Notes: generated by a model from the letters alone, not told the origin. DNA of 64,000 nucleotides from Candidatus Moraniibacteriota bacterium (GCA_049303795.1 JBAQNM010000007.1:13665-77664), one strand, 5' to 3'; shown: positions 1 to 19,841, numbered from the stretch's first letter. Numbers and translations: made by a program.

Positions 1-617
1 AGCGCCATGGAGTATATATTTTAATTTCTTCCGTAATAATAATTATCACAATCTATTTGACCTATTCTTATGCTGCTTGGCTTTCTTTATTATTAGCATT
101 TGGTATAGTTTTGGACTTAGAAAAAAAACTATTTAAAAAAATTAGCCTAATACTTCTGCTTATGATAGGCTTATTTTTTCTTCAACAAGGAAAAAGTAAA
201 TTTTTAGATTTGGTGAGCTTAGATTCTAGGTCATCTTTTTCTTCAAGAATAATGATCTGGCAATCAGCAGAAAAAATATTAGCCGATAATTGGTTTTGGG
301 GTATTGGCGCGGGTAATTTTCAGACAAAATATCTTGAATATCAAAAATATTTTTCACCATATCTAGAGTGGGCAGTGCCACATCCGCATAATTTATTTCT
401 GACCTGGTGGCTTTATTCTGGAATTATTGGGTTGATTGGATTTATTTTGCTAATTTTTGTTTGGTTTAGGGATATCCTAGTAGGCCAAAAAAAATCCAGC
501 CTAGGACTTATGGGGCTGGGAATAATGTTTTATTTTCTATTGCATGGTCTTTTCGACACAACCTATTTTAAAAACGATTTAGCGATTATTTTTTGGTTGT
601 TATTCAGCTTAATCTAG
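1..617 (+). CDS. O-antigen ligase family (Wzy_C/WaaL-like) membrane protein, C-terminal part. The frame is open to the window edge, so the gene is 5'-truncated by the window.
   Basis: Multi-TM ORF with a GIGAGNF motif and an HPHN motif typical of the Wzy_C domain. No in-frame stop between position 1 and the first Met at 57. Paralogous to the C-terminus of ORF 43778..45565. Confidence 0.55.
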   Translation, partial: RHGVYILISSVIIIITIYLTYSYAAWLSLLLAFGIVLDLEKKLFKKISLILLLMIGLFFLQQGKSKFLDLVSLDSRSSFSSRIMIWQSAEKILADNWFWGIGAGNFQTKYLEYQKYFSPYLEWAVPHPHNLFLTWWLYSGIIGLIGFILLIFVWFRDILVGQKKSSLGLMGLGIMFYFLLHGLFDTTYFKNDLAIIFWLLFSLI

Positions 618-1753
618 AGATTGGCGCGATAAAGCTTTCCGTCTGTGCGATTGATGAAAAATAAAAGACTTTCATCTGTATTAAGAAACAATTTTGTAGC
701 ATCATAACTGCCATTTATCTTGTCTATTTCGAGACTGCGAGATTTTTCTCCTGTTGCTGTGTTGATTTTCCAAAAAGTATCAATCGTATTGATTTTACCT
801 TGATCATAGTCATTAGGTATGACAGCATTATCCGGAATTCCTCCTGGCAGAGCGCAGATGATATTTTTGTTGTCACTGAGCCAAACGCATTTAGAAACGA
901 GTGTTGGAACGTTCAGGCGTTTCAATTCTCCTCCAATGGAGTTTATAATAGAAAGTTGTATTTTTGATCCACCACTAGTTTCCACGCTACTAACTAAAGC
1001 TTTTGTTCCATTATTATTCCAAAGATAATCGGCGCCAAAAACTCCTTTAAACAATTCTCTTTCACCTCCACCAACGATCGAAACTGATTTAAGGCTGGTC
1101 TCTGAAAAAGAATCGGCTTTATTCCAAAAAGAAACTAAGCTACTTTGAGGGATTTGAGTAATAGAAATATCACGAACATTAATATCGGCTAGTTTTATCC
1201 ATTCAGTGCCATCCGGGTTAGAAATAGAGAGAGTCCTTTGTTTTGTTGTAGTATCATAGTATTTATAGAAAATACGATTGCTGGTATTCTGCCAGGCAAC
1301 TTCATCAACATTTTGTTTAAGAGGCGTTTCCTGTTGATTGGGATCATAATAATAGAAGTTTGTACTTTCTCCACTAACAGTTTTTGTGATCACCTTGGTT
1401 TTGTCCGGTGACCAGGTAGCAGAAACAATACCCGCGGCTGTTTTATTAGGAAGGGACTTTTTTCCGTTGCCATTAAAATCAATTTGATAGGCACGTCCGG
1501 TAGTTTTGGAATAATAATCAATCATGCTAGGATCTTTACTGATTGTTGCTGCAACAACAGCTTCATCTGTGATGGCAATAATTGATTCTGGGTTTGTTTT
1601 TTTTGTATCTTTCGGCGTGTTATTTTCTACGACTATATGTGATTTATCTCCAGAGCTTGGAGTTTCAAATGCAAATTTATAGATGCCAAAAAAAAGCAAA
1701 GAAATGCAAAACAAAGTCAAGGATATGTAAAAAAATATTTTATTTTTAGGCAT
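614..1753 (-). CDS. Membrane-anchored hypothetical protein with a beta-propeller-like (TolB/PD40-like) repeat region
   Basis: 379-aa ORF with an N-terminal TM helix and repeated W/Y-rich strands (WSPDKTKV, LWNNNGTKALV). Its end overlaps the upstream ORF by 4 nt. Confidence 0.45.
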   Translation of the reverse strand: MPKNKIFFYISLTLFCISLLFFGIYKFAFETPSSGDKSHIVVENNTPKDTKKTNPESIIAITDEAVVAATISKDPSMIDYYSKTTGRAYQIDFNGNGKKSLPNKTAAGIVSATWSPDKTKVITKTVSGESTNFYYYDPNQQETPLKQNVDEVAWQNTSNRIFYKYYDTTTKQRTLSISNPDGTEWIKLADINVRDISITQIPQSSLVSFWNKADSFSETSLKSVSIVGGGERELFKGVFGADYLWNNNGTKALVSSVETSGGSKIQLSIINSIGGELKRLNVPTLVSKCVWLSDNKNIICALPGGIPDNAVIPNDYDQGKINTIDTFWKINTATGEKSRSLEIDKINGSYDATKLFLNTDESLLFFINRTDGKLYRANL

Positions 1754-1774
1754 AATTTTTTTAAACAGTTTTCT

Positions 1775-2698
1775 TTATAAGCCACTATCACACATACAAC
1801 CAGAAGGAGCGATGCTAATATGAACATGAGTTCCTTCAACAAGACTTTTCGCACCACAAGTAGTGGCAATTGCAGTTATTTCAGAGGATGTTCCTTCGTC
1901 ACCAATATAGTCTGATTTTGCAATATCCGCTGCATAAGATTTTCCATGACATTTTCCTCCATAGTGACAAGAGCCTGGTCTATGAAAACAACAGTTAGTT
2001 TGAGCTTGAGCTGTACATTGTTTCCAAGCTGGATGATCAGCATAGCAATTAACGCCACCATTGCCATCGGAAATAGAAGTTATTGTAATAAATGCTCTAT
2101 CTTCTCCTTGTGGAATATGATTGTACATGCAAGATAGTAGGGTTTGTAGTTCTGATGAGGCGTCTGCATATTGAGCAGCTATTCCAGCTTGGAACACCAT
2201 ATCACTAGGTGCGACAGGATTTGCTGGTAAGCCGCCTTGTCCAGCTTCTGTTATGGATGTTGAAGAGCTAACGGTGGAGCATTCAAAGGTATTCCAGGCG
2301 CTTTTTCCGATGCCCATATCTGCTTTAACAGATAGCATCGTTAATGCAGTATAAACAAGAAGCCATGCCCCAAGCATTAAAGCAAAGCCAATAACAACAT
2401 TTGTGGTAAGAGCTTTTGCTTTAGTCATCATCGTTGATGTTCCAGCTGAAACGACATACATAACTCCAGCAATAACAATTCCAAGAATCGAAACAACAAT
2501 AAGAATACCCATGCCAAAATCAATGATGTTTTTAATAAGCACAAATAAATGACAAAGAGTGCAGGGATCTGATGCTCCAAGTCCACAAGGAACAAGTCCA
2601 GCGGCGAGTAATTTTTTAGTTGGAAAAAATAAAGAAAAAATTAAAAGAATTGTGAATAATAATTTATTAAAACTAATAATTTTTGCAATTTTTTTCAT
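1775..2698 (-). CDS. T4SS pilin-like (TrbC/VirB2-like, Cys-motif) membrane protein with a C-terminal Cys-rich putative LAS-type (peptidase M15-like) zinc hydrolase domain
   Basis: Signal/TM segment followed by LVPCG...DPCTLCHLF and then two hydrophobic helices carrying a SAG..KAK motif, the pattern of Patescibacteria/Gram-positive T4SS pilins. The C-terminal half contains H-x6-D (HGKSYAAD) and EGTHVH (ExxH / HxH), compatible with a LAS zinc peptidase. The domain call is inference. Confidence 0.5.
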   Translation of the reverse strand: MKKIAKIISFNKLLFTILLIFSLFFPTKKLLAAGLVPCGLGASDPCTLCHLFVLIKNIIDFGMGILIVVSILGIVIAGVMYVVSAGTSTMMTKAKALTTNVVIGFALMLGAWLLVYTALTMLSVKADMGIGKSAWNTFECSTVSSSTSITEAGQGGLPANPVAPSDMVFQAGIAAQYADASSELQTLLSCMYNHIPQGEDRAFITITSISDGNGGVNCYADHPAWKQCTAQAQTNCCFHRPGSCHYGGKCHGKSYAADIAKSDYIGDEGTSSEITAIATTCGAKSLVEGTHVHISIAPSGCMCDSGL

Positions 2699-2702
2699 AT
2701 AT

Positions 2703-3659
2703 TTATTCTAGGTTTGTGCCAGCACATTTATTATAAAAATTTAAAACGACTGATGTTCTGGCGGGAACAACACAATATCCCCCACAATCCTTTGGGCAGT
2801 CCCATTTTTCATATGGATGTCCGTAACTATTAGTCATTCCAGTGCAGCTACTACTGACTGTTAGGGCGCCTTTTCCACCATTATAGCCAGCATAGCGATC
2901 TCTAATTACCTGAGCGGGAGGGTTCGATCTTCCTGCATTTACAACGTAGTTATTTGCAAGATAATATGCTCCACATTCTATGGCTTTTTGTGGATTTTGT
3001 TCTAATTCGTCACAAGTTGGACTTCCTGGGCAACCACTTGCTCTTGTTTGCATTGCGCCACAATCTTGACCACCATTAGTGCGTGAAGGTTGTTGCTTGC
3101 AACTTGATTCAATAGCTGCAGCGGCTTCTATCAAGCATTTATCAAGGCCAGATGTTCCAGCCACAGTGGTGAAGATTGTTTGCCACTCCGCACTTGAACA
3201 ATCGCTGGGTAATGGCGAATCTATTTTTGGATAGGTTCCATCATAACTTCTAGCAGCATCGGAGATCAGTTTGTCAACGCTCTTAATATCAAGCAGGGCT
3301 GGATTTATGGTGTAGATTAAGATATAGGAAATCATAGCAAGAATCACTCCAGCAATGGCATCCGTAATAATTCCCTTGGCTTTTCCGGCCGTGCTGGTGT
3401 TGCCGGCACTTCCAATATACATAAAAGCACCAATAGAAATCATTAAGACAGCTGATATTCCAATTGTCCAAATGCCGAAGTTATAAATAGCTGCCACGTA
3501 TTGCTGATAATTTTCAGGCCTGCCAAATCCAGGAATTTCTTCCATGGGAGTGTATACCAATTTACTTAGATCTGCGGCAAAAGAAAGCGAGGGTAGAAAA
3601 ATCGAAAAAAACAAAAAGAAAAAAAGTGTTTTTTTGAGGTTTAATTTAAAATTCATCAT
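2703..3659 (-). CDS. Pilin-like membrane protein fused to a family-1 lytic transglycosylase (SLT/VirB1-like) domain
   Basis: Signal peptide and two hydrophobic helices with a SAGN..AGKAKG..INP motif resembling the neighbouring pilin-like ORF. The C-terminal region carries all four SLT motifs in order: AIESS (ES), GAMQ (GLMQ), AIECGAYYLANNY (xxGxxYL) and RYAGYNGG (AYNAG). Confidence 0.6.
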   Translation of the reverse strand: MMNFKLNLKKTLFFFLFFSIFLPSLSFAADLSKLVYTPMEEIPGFGRPENYQQYVAAIYNFGIWTIGISAVLMISIGAFMYIGSAGNTSTAGKAKGIITDAIAGVILAMISYILIYTINPALLDIKSVDKLISDAARSYDGTYPKIDSPLPSDCSSAEWQTIFTTVAGTSGLDKCLIEAAAAIESSCKQQPSRTNGGQDCGAMQTRASGCPGSPTCDELEQNPQKAIECGAYYLANNYVVNAGRSNPPAQVIRDRYAGYNGGKGALTVSSSCTGMTNSYGHPYEKWDCPKDCGGYCVVPARTSVVLNFYNKCAGTNLE

Positions 3660-6606
3660 AATGATAAGTTTTTGTTTTAGGTATTAAAAATGTAAGTATT
3701 TTTAATAGAAATAAAATTACAAAACCGGAAAGGACAATGCGAAAAAGAAAGACTATATAACTAGGAATCCCTGCTGAAATAGTGGCCAATATTTTTTGTG
3801 AGTTAGTTTTAGCCTTAACAAGAGCGCTATCTGCCATAGTGATTTTGATAGCATGAGTGAGTCTTTTTTCATAAAAATCATCATAGCCGACCTTCCAATA
3901 TTTATTAAGCACTTTGTTTACTTTTATATCTTGAGAATAAAGAGCTGAGAAATCGATTTGATAGGCTTCACCATAATCTTTTGCTGGTAGGGTTAATGCT
4001 CCGTCTGTAATCCCATAGCCATATTCTACAACATTTTCTTCTGTGATCACGTCGCCATTTATTACCCATTTGTATTCTTTTCGATTATCTGGATTAGTTA
4101 AGTCAATTCCTGATCCCTTAGGGGTTAGGACTATTTCAAAGCCTGTTAGTGCGTTGAAGTCTATTTTACTTCGAACTTCAACAGGATTTCCGGTGAGAGG
4201 GTCTGTGCTACTTTCTGTTAATTTTGCACGACAAGTATATTGAGCAGGATCAGCCGGATTATTAAATTCTTTCGGGATAATTTCAACAGAAGGGGTGACG
4301 ATCTTAAATGTTCTCGTTAAGTTTATTTTTTCCCCAGTATCTTTTTTTACAGCAATAAGGTTTACTGTGAATTCATCACCAATTGATTTTAAAACTGGAA
4401 AATAATTAATATTTGTCTGGGTTTGGTCGGCATTTATGCAATCTTTAAAATCAGTAGCATTGGGACAGAATAAATTCGCCCCATCAAGAGACCATTTGAA
4501 ATTATCATAATCGCTAGGACCGTCAATTTTTACTCCTAAGAGTGTATTTTTTGATACATTACAAACAGCATCTGGAGTGATTATCCCCCCAATATTTTGA
4601 ACACACAACTCTTTTGTCGAAGAACTGTCGTCGATATCTACTGAAAGGGGCGTGTCGGTTATTACTGTTGGATAAACCATAATTCTTTTTTCTGTAGAAT
4701 AGATTGGTATAATGACATCTGTGCGACCCTCTCTTTCATCTCCTCCAGTGAGGCTGTCTTTAACAACCAGTTTTACTTTTAAATATTTTGGGATGCTAGG
4801 CATTGAAGCGGAGGTTTCAAAGTTCAGTTTAAAACTAAAATTATCAACACCCAATCCAACTGTCTGAGTTGCTTCAGGAAGCTCATCTTTTGTTAGGAGT
4901 GTCCAAGTGTCTGAATCTGAAGTGGAAGCATAGGAAACCTGCCATTCATAATTTAGATATTCCAAATTTTGTGCATTATTTATGAATGAACTAAGAGAAA
5001 GCTCACTGCCATTTTTTAGACCACTGGAGTCATTAGTTGGATTTTTAGGGCTGTATGCAATAGTAACCTCCATTTTTTCTTTTGATCCGCCGCCTTCTGC
5101 TGGCGTTAGCAGGTTTTCATAAAGACACTTATTTAGATCTTTAACTTTAAGATTGGTTCGAGAAATATCTTGATTTGTGAGGTCAAAGGCGTTACAAGTG
5201 TAGGTTGTGTCAGCGGTAGTATCGCTTGAGTCATTTTCATATTCATAATCAAGAATAGTAACATTTTCATCATCAGGACAGGATGATTCTCGAAGTATTG
5301 TATACGCTTGAAGTGGTGACCTAGGTGTTGCTGGTAATCCAGTCGAATCATCCGTGCAAGTAACAGTCGTTTCAGTTATTACATGCGTTCTGACATCTCC
5401 TGAGTCGTTGATTTGTGTTCCAGCTATAATAAAAGGGTAAGTTGTTTTTTTCACAACTATTGTGCAGGTTAGATCTGGTATTGGAGGAATAGCAAGCGGG
5501 TCGCCTATTTGAGATTGCGTCGTGGTTGTTGTCGTGACTGTCGGAGAATAGCCTCCATCATTTTCTCCAAAACCATCTGCATCTAGTAATTCATCGCAGG
5601 TATTTTTTGAAAAAGCCCACATAGTTTTATAGCTAGAGTCTTTTTCCTGTGTTGGCTCAATGGAAACACCCTCAATTGCAACACCGATCTTATCACCGGC
5701 ACTATAGTTGAATTTAAAGGTAGCTCTTCCAAGCCCAGCAACAGTGGCTTCATCAAACTGACCAGCTTGAGAGGTATCCCGGGAATTAGGATTGGTACGC
5801 CAAAAACCTTCTTCCCTTTTGCCAAAATTAAAATCCTTTGCAGCTGTTAATTCGCTAATGCCTTTTGAGCCATTTATTATTATGTCGTTATCAACTGCAT
5901 TTGGAAAAAGATGTCCGCACTCACAGTTTTCACTGTCATTGCAATCCGCTAGCTCATATTCATCTCCAGATTCTACATCGTGGATAAAGCAGTGAGCGTT
6001 TTTTCCTTTTTGATCTTCACCTCCACTAGATGCATCATAACTATCTTGATCGTCAATGTAGCTAGGAGGATCATAGACGTTAGTATCTGCCCTACCGTTT
6101 CCATCGGGATCCCAATTAAAGTCATCACTAGCAATAATGCGCATAGCTTTAATTTTGTAATCTTCAATATCAACCTCTTCATCATGATTAAGGTCGCATT
6201 TTTCGAAATCGCCAGGCAAAAACTTATCCTTATAATCTTCTCCATCAATCATTTCATCATAACAACGAGCATTTTTTAGATACCAAGTGAAATATAGATT
6301 GTTGGTAGTGTTGAGGAAAAAATTCGGCATTGCTGTTACGTTTAACTCATCCCCTGGTGCGGGATTTGTTGGAGTAAAAACAAGCATAACTTGTGGTTGA
6401 TTTTTCTTTTGCCTGGATACGTTGGCTGTTTTAATGGTGTTTTTTAATTCAGCCTTATCAACTCCAAGATCTTTCATAACCTTGTTTGTCATGCTGACTG
6501 GATTGATGCTAAGACCACCAAAGGCATAAAGAAAATTTACATTTAACGAAAAAGCTATTAGGACAATAAAAACAGAAAGAAATATTTTTTTTAATTTAGT
6601 TTTCAT
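3646..6606 (-). CDS. Giant (986 aa) secreted surface protein with a C-terminal membrane anchor. Candidate adhesin of the T4SS-like module.
   Basis: N-terminal signal peptide and a long Thr/Asp/Asn-rich extracellular region with TTTTTTQ and DxDxDG-like stretches. A hydrophobic anchor lies near the C-terminus (IVFLFRIVLSGFVILFLLKILTF). Overlaps the downstream ORF start by 14 nt. Confidence 0.55.
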   Translation of the reverse strand: MKTKLKKIFLSVFIVLIAFSLNVNFLYAFGGLSINPVSMTNKVMKDLGVDKAELKNTIKTANVSRQKKNQPQVMLVFTPTNPAPGDELNVTAMPNFFLNTTNNLYFTWYLKNARCYDEMIDGEDYKDKFLPGDFEKCDLNHDEEVDIEDYKIKAMRIIASDDFNWDPDGNGRADTNVYDPPSYIDDQDSYDASSGGEDQKGKNAHCFIHDVESGDEYELADCNDSENCECGHLFPNAVDNDIIINGSKGISELTAAKDFNFGKREEGFWRTNPNSRDTSQAGQFDEATVAGLGRATFKFNYSAGDKIGVAIEGVSIEPTQEKDSSYKTMWAFSKNTCDELLDADGFGENDGGYSPTVTTTTTTQSQIGDPLAIPPIPDLTCTIVVKKTTYPFIIAGTQINDSGDVRTHVITETTVTCTDDSTGLPATPRSPLQAYTILRESSCPDDENVTILDYEYENDSSDTTADTTYTCNAFDLTNQDISRTNLKVKDLNKCLYENLLTPAEGGGSKEKMEVTIAYSPKNPTNDSSGLKNGSELSLSSFINNAQNLEYLNYEWQVSYASTSDSDTWTLLTKDELPEATQTVGLGVDNFSFKLNFETSASMPSIPKYLKVKLVVKDSLTGGDEREGRTDVIIPIYSTEKRIMVYPTVITDTPLSVDIDDSSSTKELCVQNIGGIITPDAVCNVSKNTLLGVKIDGPSDYDNFKWSLDGANLFCPNATDFKDCINADQTQTNINYFPVLKSIGDEFTVNLIAVKKDTGEKINLTRTFKIVTPSVEIIPKEFNNPADPAQYTCRAKLTESSTDPLTGNPVEVRSKIDFNALTGFEIVLTPKGSGIDLTNPDNRKEYKWVINGDVITEENVVEYGYGITDGALTLPAKDYGEAYQIDFSALYSQDIKVNKVLNKYWKVGYDDFYEKRLTHAIKITMADSALVKAKTNSQKILATISAGIPSYIVFLFRIVLSGFVILFLLKILTFLIPKTKTYHYDEF

Positions 6607-7274
6607 TTTGATAAATAAATAATATATGCATCTAGAATTATTATAGCAAAAATATTCATAAAATACGAATATAAAAAAGATTTTGTTTTATAAGCCAAAA
6701 TTCCGCCCGTAATTGAAAATAAAATCATCGGTAATATTTCCCAAGAAAAGGATTTAGTCACAAGTATTATAAAAAAATAGCTTCCAGCTTGAATAATAAT
6801 AGACCAATAGTGAAATTTTTTTTGAAAAAAAGAAATTATAACACCACGAAAGAAAAAATCATGAATGAAAAATATAAAATTAACAATAATTAGTTCATAG
6901 ATTAGATAGCTCCAAAAACTGGAAAGGACATTAGGAGGGAGTTTGTAGCCTGATTGAAATCCCGAATAATTTAGGAGTAAATAAAAAAGGAGTAATGAAA
7001 ATAAAAGAAGTCCACTTCCCCAACGAAGAGCAATTCCTCGATTTTTGAGATTAAATCCAAAATCAGCCATCTTTTCTCCAAGTATTATTTTGATGTAAAT
7101 AAGGGGGAAAATAACCAGAAAAAAAATATTTTTAGTAAGTAGTTGGGCAGAGTTTTCTGCTGGAAAAGTAGTATTAAGAAAAAGACAAATGAAAAGTACA
7201 AGAGCATTTAATAGTAATGCCTGGTTATTAATAAATGAGTTTAAGTTGTATCGATTTTTTTTAAATAAGCGCAT
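6603..7274 (-). CDS. Polytopic membrane protein, possibly a degenerate CPBP (CAAX protease/Abi)-like family member
   Basis: 223-aa ORF with at least six predicted TM helices. FIHDFFFRG resembles the EExxFRG motif and ITGGILAYKTKS the C-terminal CPBP motif. The catalytic residues are not all recognisable. Confidence 0.35.
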   Translation of the reverse strand: MRLFKKNRYNLNSFINNQALLLNALVLFICLFLNTTFPAENSAQLLTKNIFFLVIFPLIYIKIILGEKMADFGFNLKNRGIALRWGSGLLLFSLLLFYLLLNYSGFQSGYKLPPNVLSSFWSYLIYELIIVNFIFFIHDFFFRGVIISFFQKKFHYWSIIIQAGSYFFIILVTKSFSWEILPMILFSITGGILAYKTKSFLYSYFMNIFAIIILDAYIIYLSK

Positions 7275-7313
7275 GGAATGTTGATGGGTTAAATTTATTT
7301 AGGAGTGAGTTTT

Positions 7314-7961
7314 TTATTTTTGGGCTTTTTTTGCTTCAGCTTCATCTTTTCTCTCCATGAGAATAAGTGTGAATGCTGTGCAAGCAGTAGCTGTTTCGAT
7401 TGGAGCGAAATTTACTCCAAAAAAGAACATTTCGACACCTGTTCCTGTGATGAGTGAAAACCATTTCATGATTTTTAACTTCATTTTTTTCTTGGATCCA
7501 AATGAGGAATGAGAGCCGCAAAAAAGCATGGCAAAAAAAATTGTAATTGAAGTCATAAGCGTGATGAGTGTTCCGATGAGGGGTAGTGAGCCGACTCCAA
7601 TAAAATCCAGATAATCTTTAGCCATTGCTACCAGTATGGCAAGAAAAAAAAAGACATCAGAAAATTTAATCAAACGAATAAGTGACAATGTGCTGGTTGG
7701 TTTTATATCTTCGGTGGGATTTGAATTTTGCGCGCCAGAACGCCTCTTGAGTCCTTCTGTTCTATTAATAGAATCTTGAAAATCACGACGCCATTTTTCC
7801 GATTGAGCTTTATTTCCATCGCTTCCTGAAGACATCCCAGGAGGCATATTTGGTCGATTGTCGATAGCCTTACCACCTTCCTTTATTCTTTGTGTATTAT
7901 TTATGGAATCTTGAAAAGCGCTATTTTGTTGGTCGTTGTATTTATTAAATGATTCTCCCAT
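7314..7961 (-). CDS. Hypothetical membrane protein with a disordered N-terminal region and two or three C-terminal TM helices
   Basis: 215-aa ORF located directly downstream of VirB4 in the same operon orientation. No recognisable catalytic motif. Confidence 0.4.
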   Translation of the reverse strand: MGESFNKYNDQQNSAFQDSINNTQRIKEGGKAIDNRPNMPPGMSSGSDGNKAQSEKWRRDFQDSINRTEGLKRRSGAQNSNPTEDIKPTSTLSLIRLIKFSDVFFFLAILVAMAKDYLDFIGVGSLPLIGTLITLMTSITIFFAMLFCGSHSSFGSKKKMKLKIMKWFSLITGTGVEMFFFGVNFAPIETATACTAFTLILMERKDEAEAKKAQK

Positions 7962-7973
7962 AGGTAGCTATTA

Positions 7974-9818: not shown

Positions 9819-10504
9819 TATTTTAGTTCCATTTTGGTCGTATCAACATAACCCATCGTATCGAAAATGGTCGGGTTGTACGAGTTAAATAGTAATTCAA
9901 TTAATTCGTTAGTCTTAAGAGGTGCAATTTTTAATCCGATACCTGAAAGTCCGGCGATAATATGATCAACTCTTTGATAAAGTGGAGCTTTGTATGTTTC
10001 AAATGTTTCTCTTTTTTCCAGAATATTTTCTTTAGGATTAATCATGTTCTTGATGTTGCTAAAAAACCCTTTTTCAGTGCTTTCAACGGGAGAAAACGGC
10101 ACAACCATATAGAAAGTTTTTTCCATGATATCAGAGAGTGAAACAAGTTGCTTAATAAAATCTTTGTATTCTGAAATTTGCAGTCGCATTAGCTCTGTTT
10201 TTTGAGTTTTCTCTTTTTCGGTTATATATTCCATGTAGGTATCAATATTCAATCGGCGTGAATTTATGAGAATTTGCAGTGGAAAGTCAACAGAGTTGAG
10301 AAAATTTTGATATTGCATGATAATTGCTTCTTGTTCATCAGAGGCCTTGAGATCGAAGTTGATAGAAGACACCTCTAAAACAGCTCGCAGTGAGCCATTT
10401 TTAAGAACAATAACATCTTCTTTAACTTCTTCTACCACGAGATATTTTTGAGTAGGAGAGGCGACTGGTTGCTTGGCTAATTTTGAAGAAAATAGAGTTT
10501 CCAT
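9818..10504 (-). CDS. VirB4 N-terminal domain encoded as a separate ORF (split virB4)
   Basis: 228-aa ORF whose TAA stop overlaps the ATG of the ATPase ORF (TAATG on the coding strand). NGSLRAVLEVSSINFDLKASDEQEAI...FLNSVDFPLQI resembles the N-terminal domain of Gram-positive VirB4 homologs. Confidence 0.5.
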   Translation of the reverse strand: METLFSSKLAKQPVASPTQKYLVVEEVKEDVIVLKNGSLRAVLEVSSINFDLKASDEQEAIIMQYQNFLNSVDFPLQILINSRRLNIDTYMEYITEKEKTQKTELMRLQISEYKDFIKQLVSLSDIMEKTFYMVVPFSPVESTEKGFFSNIKNMINPKENILEKRETFETYKAPLYQRVDHIIAGLSGIGLKIAPLKTNELIELLFNSYNPTIFDTMGYVDTTKMELK

Positions 10505-10531
10505 TGTGATTTTATATTGATATTTTAAATT

Positions 10532-10936
10532 TTATCTTTTTTGTGTATCTAATATGCGTGATAGATCTTTTGCTCTTTCAGAATCAAATACTTTTTTTGC
10601 AGGACTTTTAGTCTGTATTTTTTGAGTAGCAACTGTTGGGTGGTATTCTTTTCTTTCAGCTACTCTGTGCCATACATATAATTTTGGTCGTTTAATGAAA
10701 AGAATCGATGAGCTGACAAGTTTTATTAGGGGTTGGTTGTAGGGTCGATAGAAAGCTAGGGCTCCAAAAATAACAGCGATTATAGCGGCAGAAAGAAAAA
10801 AAGTGGCCTTATCAAGTGTGCTATAAGCAATGAGAAGTATGACGCCACCAATTGCCAGCCAGCCAAGCTGTTTAGCGGTTAGTGGGCCAACGAGCTTATC
10901 TTCAATATCAATAAATTGAGGAATGTTAAAAATCAT
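10532..10936 (-). CDS. PrgI/VirB3-like small membrane protein
   Basis: 134 aa. IPQFIDIEDKLVGPLTAKQLGWLAIGGVILLIAY is followed by two TM helices. It sits immediately upstream of VirB4, as PrgI/VirB3 does in Gram-positive T4SS. Confidence 0.55.
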   Translation of the reverse strand: MIFNIPQFIDIEDKLVGPLTAKQLGWLAIGGVILLIAYSTLDKATFFLSAAIIAVIFGALAFYRPYNQPLIKLVSSSILFIKRPKLYVWHRVAERKEYHPTVATQKIQTKSPAKKVFDSERAKDLSRILDTQKR

Positions 10937-10949
10937 TTCTTTGTTTTTT

Positions 10950-12047
10950 TTATTTCTCTTTCAAGTTTATCACATTCTTTAAAATTTGTCTTGGTGTTGT
11001 GATGTTTGTGTTAGTTTGTTTCTGTGTGGTGGGAAGATTTTGATTAATATTTCGCGCCGAGGAAAGGATATTTTTTTCAGTTGAGAATGTTTGCGGTGAA
11101 GAAAAATGAATTCTACTTAGAGTAGGCTCTGTTGGTGTGCTTTCCAGTTTTTCTTTTTGTGGTAGGTCCTTGCGCCAAGCGCTGAGGCGATCGCTGTCAG
11201 ATTGAAAAGTGGCTGAATCATTTTTTGACACTTGAGCAGCTTCCAAATTAGTGTTGTATATGGTATTTGGGGTGGCTAGCGGTCTAGTTGCTCGTGGACG
11301 TTCCATTTGTTTTTCTAATACTGGTGGAAAGATGATCTGATAAATTTTATTGTTTATTGTGAGTAGGGTTTTTTCTTCGAAGGATTTTAGGATAAGAGCT
11401 AGTTTTTCCCGATCTTGGCTAGAAAGTTGTCGAGCATTCGCATTTTTGAATAAATAATTTCCCCGAACAATTGAATCGCGATTAGAAACACCAATATTAA
11501 AAGTGTAATCAGAGAGCCAATTTTTAATGGATGGTCGGACTAAATTAGGTGTGGTTGCAAGTTTAATTTGGTCAGAAGTGATTAATTGTTCAGCAATCTC
11601 AGGATATTTTTCCAGGGCATCTTCCAGTGACAATTTTTCTGTTTGAGCTTGGTAGGCTTTTTCTTGCGAGTCATCCCTGATTATTCTATTGAGAATTATT
11701 TGTGAAATTTCTTGGGCAATATCGGTGCTAATATTTATTTCTTTAGAGAAAATCAAAGGAAATTGTTCAAATTTAACTTCTCCAAAATAATAACCGCGAA
11801 TAGCTCTAGCGATAGTGGCTAGTTGGATGTAAGTTAGTCCGTATTTTTTTCCAATTTCTTGAATTTTTTCAGAAGACAGAAGTTTATCTTTAATTGGTTC
11901 TGGCAATAATAAAAACTTTCCTTGCCTTTCTTTTATATTTTCAACAGTTTCATCATCAGGATTTAGGGTTGTAAAAACAGCATAAGGGGTTACGCAGATA
12001 TATTTTTGCGCATCCGGTTTTAGTTTGGAAAATGGTATTTCTAACAT
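10950..12047 (-). CDS. Hypothetical protein, paralog A of a tandem pair
   Basis: 365-aa soluble ORF. It shares an N-terminal region (DPDDET..IKE+Q.KFL.LPE) and an internal block (NWLSDYTFNIG.SN..S..RG.YLFKN) with the adjacent ORF 12080..13435. Confidence 0.5.
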   Translation of the reverse strand: MLEIPFSKLKPDAQKYICVTPYAVFTTLNPDDETVENIKERQGKFLLLPEPIKDKLLSSEKIQEIGKKYGLTYIQLATIARAIRGYYFGEVKFEQFPLIFSKEINISTDIAQEISQIILNRIIRDDSQEKAYQAQTEKLSLEDALEKYPEIAEQLITSDQIKLATTPNLVRPSIKNWLSDYTFNIGVSNRDSIVRGNYLFKNANARQLSSQDREKLALILKSFEEKTLLTINNKIYQIIFPPVLEKQMERPRATRPLATPNTIYNTNLEAAQVSKNDSATFQSDSDRLSAWRKDLPQKEKLESTPTEPTLSRIHFSSPQTFSTEKNILSSARNINQNLPTTQKQTNTNITTPRQILKNVINLKEK

Positions 12048-12079
12048 AGTATAAATAATATTAGTTAATTTCGAGTGCT

Positions 12080-13435
12080 TTATAGGATCGCAGCAGCTCT
12101 CAGAGCCACAATGTTATCTCCATTAAGATTTTTTTTAATTTCAGTTCTTTCTTCAGGGGCAAAACTATAAAACCGTTTTTCGATAGCGTCACGAATTATT
12201 TTCTGTTTTTCATTTACTGGCGCTTCTTCTCTGCAATAAGAAGAGAGCGTATCGTGCCAATCTTGCTTGGTCCAATGAGCTGTGTCAAGATGGGTATAGG
12301 CATTTTCAACAATATATCTTTCTGTATCACTTAGTGTTGATAAGTTTTGCTCTTCTTTGATTTTTGCAATTTCTTCTGGAGTATTGAATTTGTGATAGAT
12401 AAGGATATCTGTTCGATTTTTTTGAATAATATTATTAATTGCCTTTTGTGAATTGATGTCTTTATTATGCATTAAAAAGGCAGTGTATATTTCCAGGGTT
12501 ATCTCATTTTTTTCAGCTAGAATATAGGCAGCAGCAGCATCTCCCTTTTCTGCTTTATCAATAAGTTCACTAGTTGGAAGATTTCTTTCTTTATATTCAT
12601 TAGCGATCTTTTTCAATGCATTGGCATCTTTCAAAAAATTATGCAGAATAATTTCAGAAACAGTTGATTGGGAAAGTTTTTTTTGCGAAATATCAAGTGG
12701 ATTTGCGAAGATGATTTGTTTTTTTTCTGTGTCTATTGTGAGCAAGGTTTTTTCTTCAAAGGATTTTAGGATAGAAGAAAGCCTTTCGCGATCTTGATTG
12801 GAAAGTTGATGACAGTTTTTATTTTTAAAAAGATAATCTCCCCGAATGGCAGAATTATGATTGGAAATGCCAATATTGAAAGTATAATCAGAGAGCCAAT
12901 TTTTGATAGTTGGTTTGGCGAGACTGGAATTCAGAGAGAGTGTTATAGGGGAGGCTGTTATTTGTTGTTTTTCAATTTCAGGATATTTTTCTAGTGCTTC
13001 AATAATATTTAATTCTTCTTTTTGTTTTAGAATTGCTTTTTCTTGAGAGTTGTCATTAATTATTTTGGTAATAATTATTTGTGAAATTTCTTCGGCTAAT
13101 TCCAGATCAATATTCATCTCCTCAGAAAGAATTGAGGATATTTCCTCTAGTTTGATTTTGTCAAAATAATAAAAAAGGATAGCGCGGGATATGTCAGCTA
13201 GTTGCAAAAGTTCCAGGTGGTATTTTTTTCCAATTTCTTGAATTATTTCAGCTGTTTGCGGAGAAACAAGTTTGTTTTTTGCTGATTCTGGTAATTTCAG
13301 GAATTTTTCTTGTTTTTCTTTTATTTGGTCAAAAGTTTCATCATCAGGATCTTTTGTCATTGAAACATCAAAAGGAGAAGTGCATCTCGCCATTAATAAA
13401 TCTCTATTTAACTGAGAAGATAATATTTTCAACAT
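12080..13435 (-). CDS. Hypothetical protein, paralog B of a tandem pair, with a C-terminal GDAAAAY-motif extension
   Basis: 451-aa ORF paralogous to 10950..12047. Its C-terminal extension contains KGDAAAAYILAEKNEITLEIYTAF, which recurs in the cytoplasmic tail of the VirB6-like ORF. Confidence 0.5.
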   Translation of the reverse strand: MLKILSSQLNRDLLMARCTSPFDVSMTKDPDDETFDQIKEKQEKFLKLPESAKNKLVSPQTAEIIQEIGKKYHLELLQLADISRAILFYYFDKIKLEEISSILSEEMNIDLELAEEISQIIITKIINDNSQEKAILKQKEELNIIEALEKYPEIEKQQITASPITLSLNSSLAKPTIKNWLSDYTFNIGISNHNSAIRGDYLFKNKNCHQLSNQDRERLSSILKSFEEKTLLTIDTEKKQIIFANPLDISQKKLSQSTVSEIILHNFLKDANALKKIANEYKERNLPTSELIDKAEKGDAAAAYILAEKNEITLEIYTAFLMHNKDINSQKAINNIIQKNRTDILIYHKFNTPEEIAKIKEEQNLSTLSDTERYIVENAYTHLDTAHWTKQDWHDTLSSYCREEAPVNEKQKIIRDAIEKRFYSFAPEERTEIKKNLNGDNIVALRAAAIL

Positions 13436-13450
13436 GACTTTTTTGACTTG

Positions 13451-15304
13451 TTACACAACTACACCCCCAGTGTTAGATCTTAAAGCGGCGGCATTGTTAG
13501 GGGTTAGTCTCTTTCGAACTTCATCTTTAGCTTGTCTTGGCATGCCATTCCAAGCGGTAATTGTGGCATTTATAATTCTAGCCCTTTCTGTGGTTTTCTT
13601 GTTGAATTCAGCTGTTTGTGCAGGTGTTGCACCTACTGGTAGTCCTGGTATGGGTTGTGTTATTGATGTCCAATCTTGATCATTCCATTTTTCAGCTGCA
13701 ATACTACCCATTTGTTGATTTGCAATGTATTGAGCTGTATCAATTGGTGCGTTGCCTGCAGCAACGGCTGCAGCACTAGCAGCGCTTGCGTTGGCTTGTG
13801 TTTGACGATTTCCAAGCTCATCTGGATCATTTGATTTATCAATTGCAACTAAATCATTTCTGCTTTGCTTAACCTTACTATTAATAGCTTTTCTAAGTTT
13901 TCCATCTTTATCTTCACCTTTAGCTTTAATTTTAGCTGTGAATGCAGAATAAGTAGCTTGATCCATGCTTTTATCTTCAGACAATCGATAAGCAGCAGCA
14001 GCATCTCCATTTGCAGCTCTTGATTTGAGTTCAACCTCTTCAAGTCCTTGCTTTTTATATTCCTCAGATTGTTTTTTCATGGCAGCCTCTTCAGCTCCCT
14101 TAACACCAAATTGTGCAGCCCTCCTCGCCGCTCTTGCATCAACATTTCTCTTTGAAATAGGACTATTATCACGCATTTGTTGCAACCTAGCTTGCACTCC
14201 ACCTGTAATTCCAGTTTGCTTTGAAACAAAACCAGCAGCGCCACCTAGTGGATTCTTTGCTAACCATTTTCCAGCTTTTATTCCACCATTCACAACCGCA
14301 TTGGCTCCAGCCAGACCAGATTTTTGCGCTTCAATAATTCCCAACCAAAGGACGATGACTGGCATTGAGAAAAAAGCTGCCTTCACAAGAAGATCTTGAA
14401 GAGGATTAGCAATTGTTGTTCCAGTTACTTGTGTTCCAGCTACGGTTTTTAATGTTCCAGATTGAAGGCTTATAACAGCAATCATTAATGAGTTAGCGAC
14501 AAAAAGCATAAATACCATAATTGGTCCGGAAAAACAATGCTTCATGAAGGTTGTCCACCATTCACTGCCGGAGCTGGCCAATTTTGTGCCAGGCAGAATT
14601 GAGCCAACAAAAGCAATCGGGGAAAACATAATATAGATTGCCAAAGTGACAGTTCTAATAACAAGCAGAACGGCTATAATAAGCAGTGTCATGCCAAAAA
14701 TGAAAGTAAAAATGATGGCAAAAAATAAAAAAACAAGTGATGGATCTTGGGTTGTTGAAAAGCTTGTTACCCCACTTCTATCAATAATAGAAACAAAGGA
14801 CGTGTTGCCTCCTAAGCCTTGCAAAAGACTGTACATGATAACATTAGAAACATCAACAATAAATCGCGCAATTGGGTAGCTGAAATTGACCAAGAGTGCC
14901 ATTATGATCAGATTTTGTAAAACTGCTTTATAGTTATATTTACTTACCTGGAAAACAGTGGCAAAAGCGGAAAAAAGCAAAACCATTATAAAAGCAATAT
15001 TAAAAACATCCCGAACTGCACGCCATGTTTCATAGACTGCGGCATTATTAATAATAGCTGTCATAACTTGAGGATCAACAATCCATTGAAAAATTACTTC
15101 AGCCATAGAAAGAAGGATTAAGACAGCATCTAGTATGAGCTGAAGAATTCCTTGTACAAGACCTTGTCCCCAAAAAGCGTTTGCTCCGTTAGAATAAAAA
15201 AAGACAAAAAATAAAACCAAAAAACCGACTGCCAGTAAGCTTTTTTTAGGATTATTTTTTTTGGTTAAGGCGACTTTTTGTTTTAATTTTGATAAAATTG
15301 ACAT
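13451..15304 (-). CDS. VirB6/TrbL-like polytopic membrane protein with a hydrophilic C-terminal tail
   Basis: 617 aa. It has an N-terminal signal/TM segment, multiple TM helices over about 350 aa, and then a charged C-terminal tail. Its position upstream of the PrgI-like and VirB4 ORFs matches Gram-positive T4SS organisation. Confidence 0.5.
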   Translation of the reverse strand: MSILSKLKQKVALTKKNNPKKSLLAVGFLVLFFVFFYSNGANAFWGQGLVQGILQLILDAVLILLSMAEVIFQWIVDPQVMTAIINNAAVYETWRAVRDVFNIAFIMVLLFSAFATVFQVSKYNYKAVLQNLIIMALLVNFSYPIARFIVDVSNVIMYSLLQGLGGNTSFVSIIDRSGVTSFSTTQDPSLVFLFFAIIFTFIFGMTLLIIAVLLVIRTVTLAIYIMFSPIAFVGSILPGTKLASSGSEWWTTFMKHCFSGPIMVFMLFVANSLMIAVISLQSGTLKTVAGTQVTGTTIANPLQDLLVKAAFFSMPVIVLWLGIIEAQKSGLAGANAVVNGGIKAGKWLAKNPLGGAAGFVSKQTGITGGVQARLQQMRDNSPISKRNVDARAARRAAQFGVKGAEEAAMKKQSEEYKKQGLEEVELKSRAANGDAAAAYRLSEDKSMDQATYSAFTAKIKAKGEDKDGKLRKAINSKVKQSRNDLVAIDKSNDPDELGNRQTQANASAASAAAVAAGNAPIDTAQYIANQQMGSIAAEKWNDQDWTSITQPIPGLPVGATPAQTAEFNKKTTERARIINATITAWNGMPRQAKDEVRKRLTPNNAAALRSNTGGVVV

Positions 15305-15410
15305 AATACTTTTTTAGGACCTAGATAAAATATAACTTGATAGAGTTGCCTCGTGTGATTATGCGTAGTAATTTTTAATTTGAAAATTTTTCCAGTAATG
15401 AATCTGATTT

Positions 15411-16226
15411 TTAATTAGTGATTTTTGTTAATACTTTTTCACTAGCTTTTCTGAGGGCTCTTGTTACAGCCATATTGACAACGGCAGCAGTCAACTCAAC
15501 TACGTTTGCAGCATTGATGATTGAATCGGTGTTGATATTTTCAAGACGAGACTGGCTTTCTTTATATAGGATTCCAGGTCTTCCATCTTTGCTATCATAT
15601 CCTTGATTAGCAATGGCCATTGCGGTTGAAGAATCCTTTTTGTTTTGGTAGTATTGTTCGCGTGCTTCACTGGCGCGCATTTTTACAGCTGCAGCATTAT
15701 TACCATCCAATACGAAACGATTCAATTCAGAAAGATTCCCCGCTGCTAGGATTTCATCAGGATTACCAGAATAGGTTGATTTCCATTGTGGAATACCGCT
15801 ATTATCAACATCCTTATCATCAATAGCAACTTCGTTACTGATAATTTCTTGCATCGCCTTTGCATAGTCGGTGTTTATTCCTCTGTAGGCGGTTTTAATG
15901 TAGGAATTGATAAATTTATCAGCTCTTTTTTCGGGGCCTTTGATGATGTAATCTTGCCAATCAGTGATTATTCTTGCTGAATTTTCAACCATACCCAACT
16001 GAGTTAATAATAAGATGGGAAGTTGTTTTTGCAGGCCCTGAACAATTCCTTTGACTGTATAGGAAAGCTCTTCCATGGCTTGTTTTTCTATTTCAGCAGC
16101 TAGTGCGTCCCATGCCTTGGCGGAGTTTGTTTTTATTGGTGAAAATGAAATTAGGCAAACAGCAAAAAAAACAAAAAATAATTTTTGAAGAGAAAAAAAG
16201 TTAGTTGATTTTTTTTTATTATTCAT
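15411..16226 (-). CDS. Secreted hypothetical protein
   Basis: 271-aa ORF with an N-terminal signal-like hydrophobic segment and no recognisable motif. Confidence 0.4.
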   Translation of the reverse strand: MNNKKKSTNFFSLQKLFFVFFAVCLISFSPIKTNSAKAWDALAAEIEKQAMEELSYTVKGIVQGLQKQLPILLLTQLGMVENSARIITDWQDYIIKGPEKRADKFINSYIKTAYRGINTDYAKAMQEIISNEVAIDDKDVDNSGIPQWKSTYSGNPDEILAAGNLSELNRFVLDGNNAAAVKMRASEAREQYYQNKKDSSTAMAIANQGYDSKDGRPGILYKESQSRLENINTDSIINAANVVELTAAVVNMAVTRALRKASEKVLTKITN

Positions 16227-17307
16227 TTGTTTGATCTTCTGTTGTTAGTAGTGGCTCCAAAGGTAACTCATCAAGACTGTCTGGCGCTTCAATCCCGTAA
16301 CTTTCTATACCTTTTTCAAGATTTTCATCATAAATTAGACCATATTCAGAAATTTTTATTTGGGCTTCTGCAGCAAAACTATCAGCAGCTGAAATTATAT
16401 TTTGTATTTTTGATAAATTAACGAGATTTCCCATCGGATCATCTTCTTTTTGTTGGAAGGAGTTTAGTACTTGCTGAGAATATAGATTAAGAGAAAGTCC
16501 TTTACTGTGAACGTCAACCAAATCTTCTGGTACCTCAAGCTCATTGATTTGTTCAGTAATCTTTTTTTGACTGGCTTGCAAGCCTGCTAATTTTGATGTA
16601 TCACCAGTAGAGATTGCTGAGGTGACGGTGCCTAATGTGCTGGAAATTACACCGGTGCCTTCAGTCATGGATGTGACTGGTGTTGGAGAATTGCTGGAAC
16701 AGATATAGGCAAGGGATAATAGATATTTAGTAAAATCCTCTTTTTTCTTTTCTTTAGCCTCTTTTTCACTTAATTTTGAATAGTCTTGTTTTTTAATTTT
16801 AAGATCTTCTTTTTTTACAACCGGCATGAGATCTTCTTCGGCTGTATCGCTATCCATCGTTTGATTTATTAATTCTTGCATATCAGTAATGGAAACAGTT
16901 TTTTCAGCATCTCCAGAATTTGTTAGTTCCGAAATTTTTTCAGCTATGGATTTGGTGAGATTTTCTTCTCCTGATGACACTCCAAGCACACTAACAGCTT
17001 TCAGGCCGGATGCGCTTAGTGCTTCAGCTGTATCAGTTATAATTTTATCACCCGGAGCGGGTTTTTTAGGATCATAACCACTACGCACTTCAGTGCCATC
17101 AGAATAGCTATCTCCATCCGTATCTTGATTTTTTGGATCAGTTCCATACATTTTTTCTTCTTCATCAGTGAGGCCATCCTGATCAATATCGAGAAAGACA
17201 TTACTTGTGTTTCCGGTTTTATTTTCAGCGCCAACATAAAAACTAAAACTTAGAAAAATTAAGCAAAATAAAATCAGAAAAGAATGATTGATATTTTTTA
17301 TTTTCAT
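16219..17307 (-). CDS. Secreted protein with thrombospondin type-3-like calcium-binding Asp repeats
   Basis: Signal peptide followed by DIDQDGLTDEEE...DPKNQDTDGDSYSDGTE (DxDxDG repeats). There is a second Asp-rich block at the C-terminus. Confidence 0.5.
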   Translation of the reverse strand: MKIKNINHSFLILFCLIFLSFSFYVGAENKTGNTSNVFLDIDQDGLTDEEEKMYGTDPKNQDTDGDSYSDGTEVRSGYDPKKPAPGDKIITDTAEALSASGLKAVSVLGVSSGEENLTKSIAEKISELTNSGDAEKTVSITDMQELINQTMDSDTAEEDLMPVVKKEDLKIKKQDYSKLSEKEAKEKKKEDFTKYLLSLAYICSSNSPTPVTSMTEGTGVISSTLGTVTSAISTGDTSKLAGLQASQKKITEQINELEVPEDLVDVHSKGLSLNLYSQQVLNSFQQKEDDPMGNLVNLSKIQNIISAADSFAAEAQIKISEYGLIYDENLEKGIESYGIEAPDSLDELPLEPLLTTEDQTNE

Positions 17308-17394
17308 ATAGTCAGATTATAGCACAAATGTTGTTAGGTTGTGAAGGGGAAAAATGAAATTGCCTAAAAATAAAAATAATGCTAATTTGAGTTC

Positions 17395-19047: not shown

Positions 19048-19841
19048 AAAAGTTCAGCTATTTTTTTCCATTCAGCCAGACTTAATTCTTGCGCTCTTAT
19101 ATTAGCGCTTAATCCTAGGCTTGTGATTTTTGTGGTTGCTTCCATTTTTGTGATTTTCAGGCTGGCACTTAGGTTATTGGAAAGTGTTTTGCGTTTAGCG
19201 GAAAAACCTGCCTTGACTACACGAAAAAATCTTTTACTATTTTCCGATTTTAATCCAGTGTTTTTATTAAGGCTTATTTTTATTATGGCGCTATCCACTT
19301 CTGGAATGGGAAAGAAGGCTTTTCTGGGGACAATAAAAAGCAATTCTGGAGTGGCGTAGTATTGGACAGAAAGGGCGAGAATGCTTAGTTGCCCCGGCTT
19401 TGCGATTATTCTTTCAGCGACCTCTTTTTGCACCATTAAAAGCATCTCAGTTGGAGGATAGGCTGTTTCTAGAAATAAACGAATAATTTTTGAGGTGATG
19501 TAATAAGGAATGTTAGCGATTAGTTTATATTTCTGGCTAGGAATGTTTTTCTGTATTATTTCTGGTAAGTTTATTGTTAAGATATCAGCTTGAATAATCT
19601 CAATCTTTTCTTTTGCGGAAAATCTTTTTTTCAAATTGCCAATCAATGCTCGATCAATTTCAATGGCTAAAACTTGTTTAGCTGATTTTGCCATTTCTGC
19701 GGTTAGAACTCCTTCTCCGGGGCCTATTTCCAAAATAAAGTCATCAGCATTGATATTTGCAACCGAAATAATTTTTTTGAGAATTTCTTCATCACGCAGG
19801 AAATTTTGCCCGAGAGATTTTTTTGGTTTAATTTTGTCCAT
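19044..19841 (-). CDS. rsmA: 16S rRNA (adenine1518/1519-N6)-dimethyltransferase RsmA/KsgA
   Basis: LGQNFLRDEEILKKI and the SAM-binding ILEIGPGEGVLT motif. The length of 265 aa is typical. Confidence 0.9.
   Translation of the reverse strand: MDKIKPKKSLGQNFLRDEEILKKIISVANINADDFILEIGPGEGVLTAEMAKSAKQVLAIEIDRALIGNLKKRFSAKEKIEIIQADILTINLPEIIQKNIPSQKYKLIANIPYYITSKIIRLFLETAYPPTEMLLMVQKEVAERIIAKPGQLSILALSVQYYATPELLFIVPRKAFFPIPEVDSAIIKISLNKNTGLKSENSKRFFRVVKAGFSAKRKTLSNNLSASLKITKMEATTKITSLGLSANIRAQELSLAEWKKIAELF

Follow-up and report, generated by a model that had tools for sequence, protein, structure and literature searches.

A 64,000-nt stretch of the genome of a Candidatus Moraniibacteriota bacterium (GCA_049303795.1 JBAQNM010000007.1:13665-77664; the whole stretch is referred to below as the window) contains, at 614-17307, a block of 14 open reading frames (ORFs), all on the minus strand, which a sequence-only reading had described as a type IV secretion system (T4SS)-like module. 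We checked the ORFs and the identities of the encoded components, and the block was found to be real, with unchanged coordinates. It is very probably the form taken in Moranbacteria by the non-conjugative T4SS of the Patescibacteria, a chromosomal and vertically inherited system derived from the MPF_FATA conjugation machinery of monoderm bacteria. This class of system is already known, having been described in 2023-2025, and the locus is a typical member of it rather than a discovery; every feature flagged in the sequence-only reading falls within the published description of the Patescibacteria T4SS. The view taken in that reading, that such sets serve DNA uptake or host-cell interaction rather than conjugation, is supported and is likewise in print already (PMC10633639, PMC12102498, PMC12857230). 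The additions made here to that picture are small and incremental, namely a conserved Moranbacteria module, a VirB6-linked protein family (the J family), and a chimeric paralog of J (K).

Core genes and operon structure

The genes are lettered from N, the first of the block, to A, the last. The core genes, the two pilin-domain genes and the candidate promoter are as follows:

17316..17345, minus strand: candidate operon promoter, TTCACA-18-TG-TATAAT (11/12 consensus, best sigma70-like match in 1-19500)
13451..15304, minus strand: L, VirB6-like polytopic membrane protein with ~7 transmembrane (TM) segments and a ~290-aa cytoplasmic tail (hydropathy and weak profile matches)
10532..10936, minus strand: I, PrgI/VirB3-like two-TM protein (PF12666, E=2.5e-9; two hydrophobic segments)
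9818..10504, minus strand: H, TrsD/TraC-like protein, putative counterpart of the VirB4 N-terminal domain (precomputed PF26593; Pontibacillus homolog)
7974..9818, minus strand: G, predicted VirB4 ATPase of the monoderm (MPF_FATA-like) type (Pfam, PDB and plasmid matches)
2703..3659, minus strand: C, VirB2-like pilin hairpin with a predicted lytic transglycosylase (VirB1-like) ectodomain (SLT, E=1e-3; hairpin common with B)
1775..2698, minus strand: B, VirB2-like pilin hairpin with a conserved Cys/His-rich ectodomain (T4SS_pilin, E=4e-3, weak)

Judged by its sequence matches, G is a VirB4 of the monoderm type. It matched the Pfam model P-loop_TraG (E=5e-30) and, in PDB, the Gram-positive VirB4 4AG5 (E=1.6e-48), the match to R388 TrwK reaching only 1e-5. 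Its nearest relatives in the plasmid collection came from Firmicutes and Actinobacteria (28-36% identity) and were annotated 'CD1110 family'; identity to VirB4 proteins from outside the candidate phyla radiation (CPR) was 36% at most. The sole Walker A motif in the operon is that of G, which spans 93-97% of short Gram-positive VirB4s. When G was compared with PrgJ, the VirB4 of pCF10, residues 41-573 aligned with PrgJ 228-773 (E=1e-47), and the N-terminal ~200 aa of PrgJ had no counterpart. Because G aligns only to this part of PrgJ and H occupies the missing N-terminal position, with the H stop codon overlapping the G start codon (TAATG), the split VirB4 proposed in the sequence-only reading is defensible. 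H and G would correspond to a conserved TrsD plus VirB4 layout, of which 'split VirB4' is a fair description. H belongs to the precomputed family PF26593 (TraC-like), which was not listed by the hmmscan run of this analysis, and a homolog of H adjoins the VirB4 gene of Pontibacillus (E=2e-28). Mean column identity of H across 37 species was 70%. A frameshift as the origin of the H/G split was ruled out, since the arrangement is kept in ~42 loci.

The remaining core components named in the sequence-only reading were also present, I on the PF12666 match listed above and L on weaker evidence. Hydropathy analysis gave seven hydrophobic segments for L, and a precomputed match to TrbL_3 was weak. 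TrbL/VirB6 was matched by 4 of 42 L-family members (best 3e-5), a member of the L family was weakly matched by Tn916 Orf15, and L may be described as VirB6-like on these grounds. When the M, H, L, B and D families were run as profiles against PDB sequences, no real matches were returned.

B and C have in common a two-helix VirB2-like hairpin. The T4SS_pilin model matched 41 of the 45 B/C family members, and it was not detected by Pfam in the window copy of C. The SLT score of C was 19.1 bits, just below the Pfam cut-off of 21.3; within the C family, SLT was matched in 12 members and SLT_3 in 7 (19 in all), with a best E of 2e-16, and the ectodomain is accordingly annotated above as a predicted lytic transglycosylase. 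The pilin-like proteins and the peptidoglycan-hydrolase domain of the sequence-only reading are thus borne out. The ectodomain of B carries the conserved motifs SCHYGG...A.D...H.H and gave no PDB match in single-sequence and profile searches. From the SCHYGG...A.D and H.H motifs, the C-terminal domain of B was suspected to be a LAS/M15 zinc peptidase, and neither type of search supported this.

Junctions between the genes range from -14 to +39 nt, plus a single gap of 106 nt, the largest intergenic space inside the operon, and all 14 ORFs are intact and tightly packed. Because of these tight junctions and one strong promoter-like site, N-M-L-K-J-I-H-G-F-E-D-C-B-A is read as a single operon. 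The candidate promoter, proposed from its consensus match, sits immediately 5' of N; its -10 element ends only 9 nt short of the N ATG, which suggests that the operon transcript may be leaderless or near-leaderless. An obvious Shine-Dalgarno sequence was seen upstream of none of the 14 genes.

Chromosomal setting, conjugation functions and known systems

J corresponds to NCBI entry 'WAV31_04935 [Candidatus Moraniibacteriota bacterium]' on a 103.5-kb contig; this taxon lies within the Parcubacteria/Patescibacteria group, in agreement with the CPR origin suspected from the sequence alone. The bacterium is ultrasmall, and its genome is a metagenome-assembled genome (MAG). Identical proteins are encoded on the NCBI contigs of three MAGs (GCA_049296135.1, GCA_049286985.1 and GCA_049305975.1) and in Logan assemblies. 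Upstream of window position 1 lie genes for two Wzy ligases, two GT2 glycosyltransferases, a flippase, Jag/R3H, YidC, RnpA and L34, then dnaA and dnaN. Thus dnaA starts ~7.5 kb beyond gene A, the operon end, with L34, RnpA and YidC between. Beyond the first gene of the operon are UbiA (divergent), RsmA/KsgA (19044-19841), a YabE-like 3D-domain protein and ComM.

To compare this region across relatives, an alignment of the J family was scanned against one genome per GTDB species, which yielded 57 loci, almost all from Moranbacteria/Parcubacteria MAGs, and the window proteins were mapped onto them by phmmer and jackhmmer. The order ComM-YabE-RsmA-UbiA(-)-N-M-L-J-I-H-G-F-E-D-C-(B)-A was found in ~42 of the 57 loci. 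As the same gene order recurs in these ~42 species-level genomes, the locus is a vertically inherited chromosomal operon beside the replication origin and not an integrative and conjugative element (ICE). Flanking ORFs left unmatched by the mapping were scanned as 20 cluster representatives, which account for most such ORFs, and were housekeeping genes. A mobile element was rejected on this synteny with housekeeping genes, on the G+C content, which is uniform across the window, and on the absence of borders or an adjacent tRNA: in a repeat scan, neither flanking repeats nor mobile-element borders were found, the only notable repeat in the locus being the J/K duplication, and no tRNA adjoins the locus.

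The sequence-only reading had stressed that a VirD4-like ATPase, a relaxase and an oriT-like feature were missing over 17 kb, and our scans of the operon likewise found none. No VirD4/TraG, FtsK-type type IV coupling protein (T4CP) or relaxase was detected in ~82 kb of this genome, comprising the 64-kb window, 13 kb upstream and 5 kb downstream. The upstream part runs through dnaA and dnaN and holds no relaxase or coupling protein that would make the block an ordinary conjugative element; in the 5 kb past the window end there are NUDIX and TrmB genes and unknowns, and nothing else. When pCF10 PcfC and PcfG and the FtsK-like T4CP and MobT of Tn916 were used as queries in iterative searches, 0 matches were obtained in 1.26 Mb of related loci, where two VirB4 queries, used as a sensitivity control, gave 49 matches each. 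The repeat scan of the locus revealed no oriT-like feature, and no LPXTG adhesin was found.

These properties agree with published descriptions of the Patescibacteria T4SS. Quinonero-Coronel et al. (2025) reported that VirB4 proteins of a single monophyletic clade within MPF_FATA occur in 2,407 of 3,035 Patescibacteria genomes (PMC12102498). TrsD, PrgI/VirB3, VirB6 and VirB2-like pilins are encoded near virB4, the VirB1-virB4 association is found mainly in Paceibacteria, and the T4SS locus of Paceibacteria and Microgenomatia lies near dnaA, dnaN, rnpA, rpmH and ksgA (PMC12102498). Wang et al. (2023) showed that the T4SS of S. epibionticum (SEML1_0006-0019), which includes pilin genes, is essential for epibiotic growth (PMC10633639); its pilins are essential too, and no coupling protein or relaxase was recognised (PMC10633639). 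The locus resembles systems of this clade in having VirB4 with adjacent TrsD-like, PrgI/VirB3 and VirB6 genes, pilin genes, and peptidoglycan hydrolases beside the core, in having no relaxase or T4CP in the cluster, and in its chromosomal position near dnaA/dnaN/rnpA/rpmH/ksgA. In contrast to them, it has only two pilin-domain genes, both with ~200-aa ectodomains, instead of an array of small pilins; it carries the Moranbacteria-specific accessory genes J/K, M, N, D, E, F and A; and the tandem J/K pair with a chimeric K was seen only in the window lineage.

With the conjugative MPF_FATA systems (pCF10 Prg/Pcf, pGO1 Trs and Tn916) the operon shares the order VirB6 - VirB3 - (TrsD) - VirB4 - peptidoglycan hydrolase, and with the pGO1 subclass the two-gene TrsD plus VirB4 layout. 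Unlike pCF10, pGO1 and Tn916, the locus has no PcfC/VirD4, FtsK-like T4CP, relaxase, oriT, LPXTG adhesin or recognisable PrgL/VirB8, whereas it does have VirB2-like pilin domains and is carried by neither a plasmid nor an ICE. Within the plasmid collection, the VirB4 nearest to G (36% identity) belongs to a module of Pontibacillus sp. ALD_SL1 (NZ_CP062975.1, 351-361 kb of an 898-kb replicon) that encodes two pilin-like proteins, a 779-aa protein, PrgI, a TrsD-like protein (the H homolog mentioned above), VirB4 and a 1,050-aa peptidoglycan endopeptidase. The pilin-like genes, PrgI and the large hydrolase are further points of likeness to the window. The annotation of the +-15 kb around this module lists neither a T4CP nor a relaxase, and the replicon was typed as non-mobilizable. 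The module differs in its Firmicute host, in its position beside flagellar genes, and in having no homologs of the J family, D, M or N; it looks like a Firmicute counterpart of the relaxase-less, pilin-bearing systems. ComB of Helicobacter pylori is likewise a chromosomal T4SS and functions with neither a coupling protein nor a relaxase, but it is a diderm VirB2-4/6-10 system.

The J family and the accessory envelope proteins

The tandem paralogous unknowns noticed in the sequence-only reading lie between the VirB6-like and the PrgI/VirB3-like genes:

12080..13435, minus strand: K, lineage-specific chimeric paralog (J-type core, 1-248, and copy of the VirB6 tail, 273-447)
10950..12047, minus strand: J, typical member of an uncharacterised cytoplasmic family (no Pfam; alignment; conserved VirB6 adjacency)

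J and K are 56% identical over the first 248 aa. J had no Pfam match, and no Pfam model exists for its family. A profile search with the J family against 1.84 billion cluster representatives returned 1,422 sequences at E<=1e-3, 663 of them at E<=1e-30. Members combine a conserved core of helices with a linker rich in P and Q, an FSSPQ motif and the C-terminal peptide KN[VI]V[ND]L[KR]; in its strict form this last motif occurs in 43 of 58 loci, with variants in most others. In each of the 51 loci with a VirB6 ORF, the next gene downstream of VirB6 is a J-family gene. The C-terminal 175 residues of K are homologous to the cytoplasmic tail of its VirB6-like neighbour, the match being with L 408-610 (29% identity, E=2e-10), and such a chimera was seen only in the window lineage, with none in the other 57 loci. 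Neither J nor K has a P-loop, and no relaxase family was detected in either.

J probably acts on the cytoplasmic tail of VirB6. A bolder proposal, tentative and in our judgement rather unlikely, is that J, which ends in a disordered linker and a conserved KNVVNLK peptide, represents an unrecognised core subunit of the Moranbacteria T4SS that docks on this tail and recruits substrates in place of the missing VirD4; if so, K would be a snapshot of the partnership between J and the VirB6 tail. A C-terminal peptide common to VirB6 tails and J was looked for and not found. Many of the more distant VirB6 homologs of related loci have, within their last ~15 residues, a terminal peptide that recurs in the form 'D(P)x(L)xN(I/M)' (SDPRLMNMR, NDPYLRNIV and GDPDLRHRT are examples) and is unlike the tail domain common to L and K of the window.

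A second layout was observed in ~11 related loci, where the genes after VirB6 and J form an array encoding small pilins, with NusA, trigger factor and ClpP beyond it. PrgI-TrsD-VirB4 was absent within 10 kb in these loci, indicating that J travels with VirB6 and pilins and not with VirB4. In at least 4 of them a LysM-CHAP hydrolase is encoded just upstream of VirB6. The window itself encodes a LysM-LysM-CHAP peptidoglycan hydrolase (34074-35168, minus strand) that adjoins an XerC/D-type tyrosine recombinase (35421-36362, plus strand), and this hydrolase is of the same family as the one directly upstream of VirB6 in some second-layout loci.

The other six genes of the operon encode envelope proteins:

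16219..17307, minus strand: N, first gene, secreted or anchored protein with bacterial TSP3 (Ca-binding) repeats (TSP3_bac PF18884, E=3.5e-9)
15411..16226, minus strand: M, signal-anchored extracytoplasmic protein of a fast-evolving family (38 syntenic homologs)
7314..7961, minus strand: F, membrane protein, cytoplasmic over the N-terminal ~95 aa and with TM segments towards the C-terminus (hydropathy; 38 syntenic homologs)
6603..7274, minus strand: E, polytopic CPBP/Rce1-like membrane protein (PF02517, E=5e-4, below cut-off)
3646..6606, minus strand: D, 986-aa surface protein comprising signal peptide, ~910-aa ectodomain and TM anchor at the C-terminus (hydropathy)
614..1753, minus strand: A, last gene, signal-anchored protein with a probable beta-propeller ectodomain (weak beta-propeller Pfam matches, all below cut-off; hydropathy)

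The 986-aa anchored surface protein and the TSP3-repeat protein of the sequence-only reading correspond to D and N. Its suggestion that the paralogs and the giant surface protein are lineage-specific components gained support from their position, which is kept in ~40 species-level genomes. D has 39 syntenic homologs with many invariant Cys, Trp and Gly residues; it gave no Pfam or PDB match, and a weak PKD_3 match appeared in only 5 of 35 homologs. N has an N-terminal hydrophobic segment and occupies the same position in 35 related loci, and A was found in 23 related loci, where the end of the locus often truncates it. M had no Pfam or PDB match, and a single-sequence homolog search recovered only its own cluster; for F there was no significant Pfam match. 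The AlphaFold2 model of K was confident in the N-terminal domain (predicted local distance difference test score, pLDDT, >90), which had no structural neighbour in PDB or BFVD, and the model of M, built from a 20-sequence alignment, had a pLDDT of 48 and was too poor to compare with VirB8. CPBP (PF02517) was matched by 16 of 36 E-family members (best 5e-8). At the place of the canonical catalytic EExxxR, E has H-D-F-F-F-R-G, and its family instead conserves 'YEL..N' and 'FF.GF'; E may be a non-catalytic or variant CPBP member.

Function, alternative explanations and the rest of the window

In the function that we propose, VirB4 together with TrsD would power both a VirB6-VirB3 membrane channel and the assembly of a pilin-based surface structure. 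The hydrolase ectodomains of the pilin-domain proteins would open peptidoglycan, of the cell itself or of its host; D, N, M and A would form the part at the cell surface that contacts the host; and J would work with the VirB6 tail. The machine would move macromolecules, and not plasmid DNA, between epibiont and host, in one direction or the other. A host-interaction translocon is put forward as the most likely reading, with nucleic-acid import as its main rival. Several points weigh against it. The function is wholly inferred, no Moranbacterium is in culture, and an epibiotic lifestyle is assumed from relatives. With their ~200-aa ectodomains, B and C may be membrane-anchored enzymes and not polymerising pilins. 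The VirB6 assignment of L itself is weak, and no VirB8-like component was identified, a PrgL query giving 0 matches in the related loci. Finally, the absence of a T4CP is established for ~82 kb of this genome only.

The main rival supposes a DNA-uptake (competence-type) T4SS, like ComB of Helicobacter or the archaeal Ced system, through which DNA or other nucleic acids, environmental or host-derived, would be taken up. The operon resembles ComB in lacking a T4CP and a relaxase, and a gene for the competence helicase ComM, a ComM-like Mg-chelatase/helicase (20811-22337, minus strand), lies 3.5 kb from the operon in a neighbourhood kept in 30 of the 57 loci. This is the only ComB-type link found; however, the YabE, RsmA and divergent UbiA genes separate ComM from the operon, and the proximity may simply reflect origin-proximal synteny. 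Elsewhere, T4SS loci of the class ABY1 lie near comF/recG/radA (PMC12102498), and a 2026 preprint describes host-RNA feeding, with tubular structures that are possibly T4SS pili, in a cultured relative (bioRxiv 10.64898/2026.06.21.733656). In S. epibionticum, on the other hand, competence needs type IV pili and ComEC, and cells can lose comEC and live but cannot do without the T4SS (PMC12857230, PMC10633639), indicating that the essential role of that T4SS is not transformation. No DNA-binding component was identified in the operon either, and we consider a dedicated role in nucleic-acid uptake unlikely.

It is very improbable that the operon serves genuine conjugation or mobilisation with a coupling protein and a relaxase that lie elsewhere in the genome or have diverged beyond recognition, an unknown such as J or K perhaps being the divergent component. 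VirD4-like genes are indeed usually distant from virB4 in Patescibacteria, as they are in 2,918 of 3,035 genomes (PMC12102498), the inspected sequence amounts to ~82 kb, and J and K have no assignable fold. Relaxases, however, occur in only 103 of the 3,035 genomes (PMC12102498), the distant T4CP homologue is non-essential in S. epibionticum (PMC12102498), and J and K have neither a P-loop nor a detected relaxase family. The fixed chromosomal site at the origin side in ~42 species and the lack of mobile-element borders at the locus also speak against mobilisation. Loss of present function, with the operon as the decaying remnant of an anciently integrated conjugative element, might account for the missing T4CP, relaxase and VirB8 and for the degenerate CPBP motif of E. 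This is extremely improbable, as 14 intact and tightly packed ORFs, an order and content conserved across ~42 species, the 70% mean column identity of H, and the essential nature of the homologous system in Saccharibacteria (PMC10633639) all argue against decay.

A large part of bacterial diversity belongs to the Patescibacteria, which seem to live on other cells, and no T4SS before their relaxase-less one had been shown to be essential for the organism that carries it. With its defined list of 13-14 gene parts, the locus is a clean and strongly conserved example from the Moranbacteria, and it leaves the current picture unchanged. Candidates for structural and interaction studies are the J family, the fusion of VirB2 with SLT, the 986-aa surface protein D, M and N.

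Beyond ComM, the window continues with housekeeping genes, including those for PNPase, PcrA/UvrD, FtsH, a TilS-like protein, S1, GyrA and the CCA enzyme, and with several TrmB regulators. Paralogs of this helix-turn-helix family are unusually many, with 2 more at most 5 kb beyond the window and 4 inside it:

29643-30494, minus strand: TrmB paralog
47261-48046, plus strand: TrmB paralog
57953-58696, plus strand: TrmB paralog
61465-62247, plus strand: TrmB paralog

Two further ORFs, at 62335-63960 (plus strand, 541 aa) and 24323-25591 (minus strand, 422 aa), had no Pfam match and no Walker motif and are conserved on the sister contigs.

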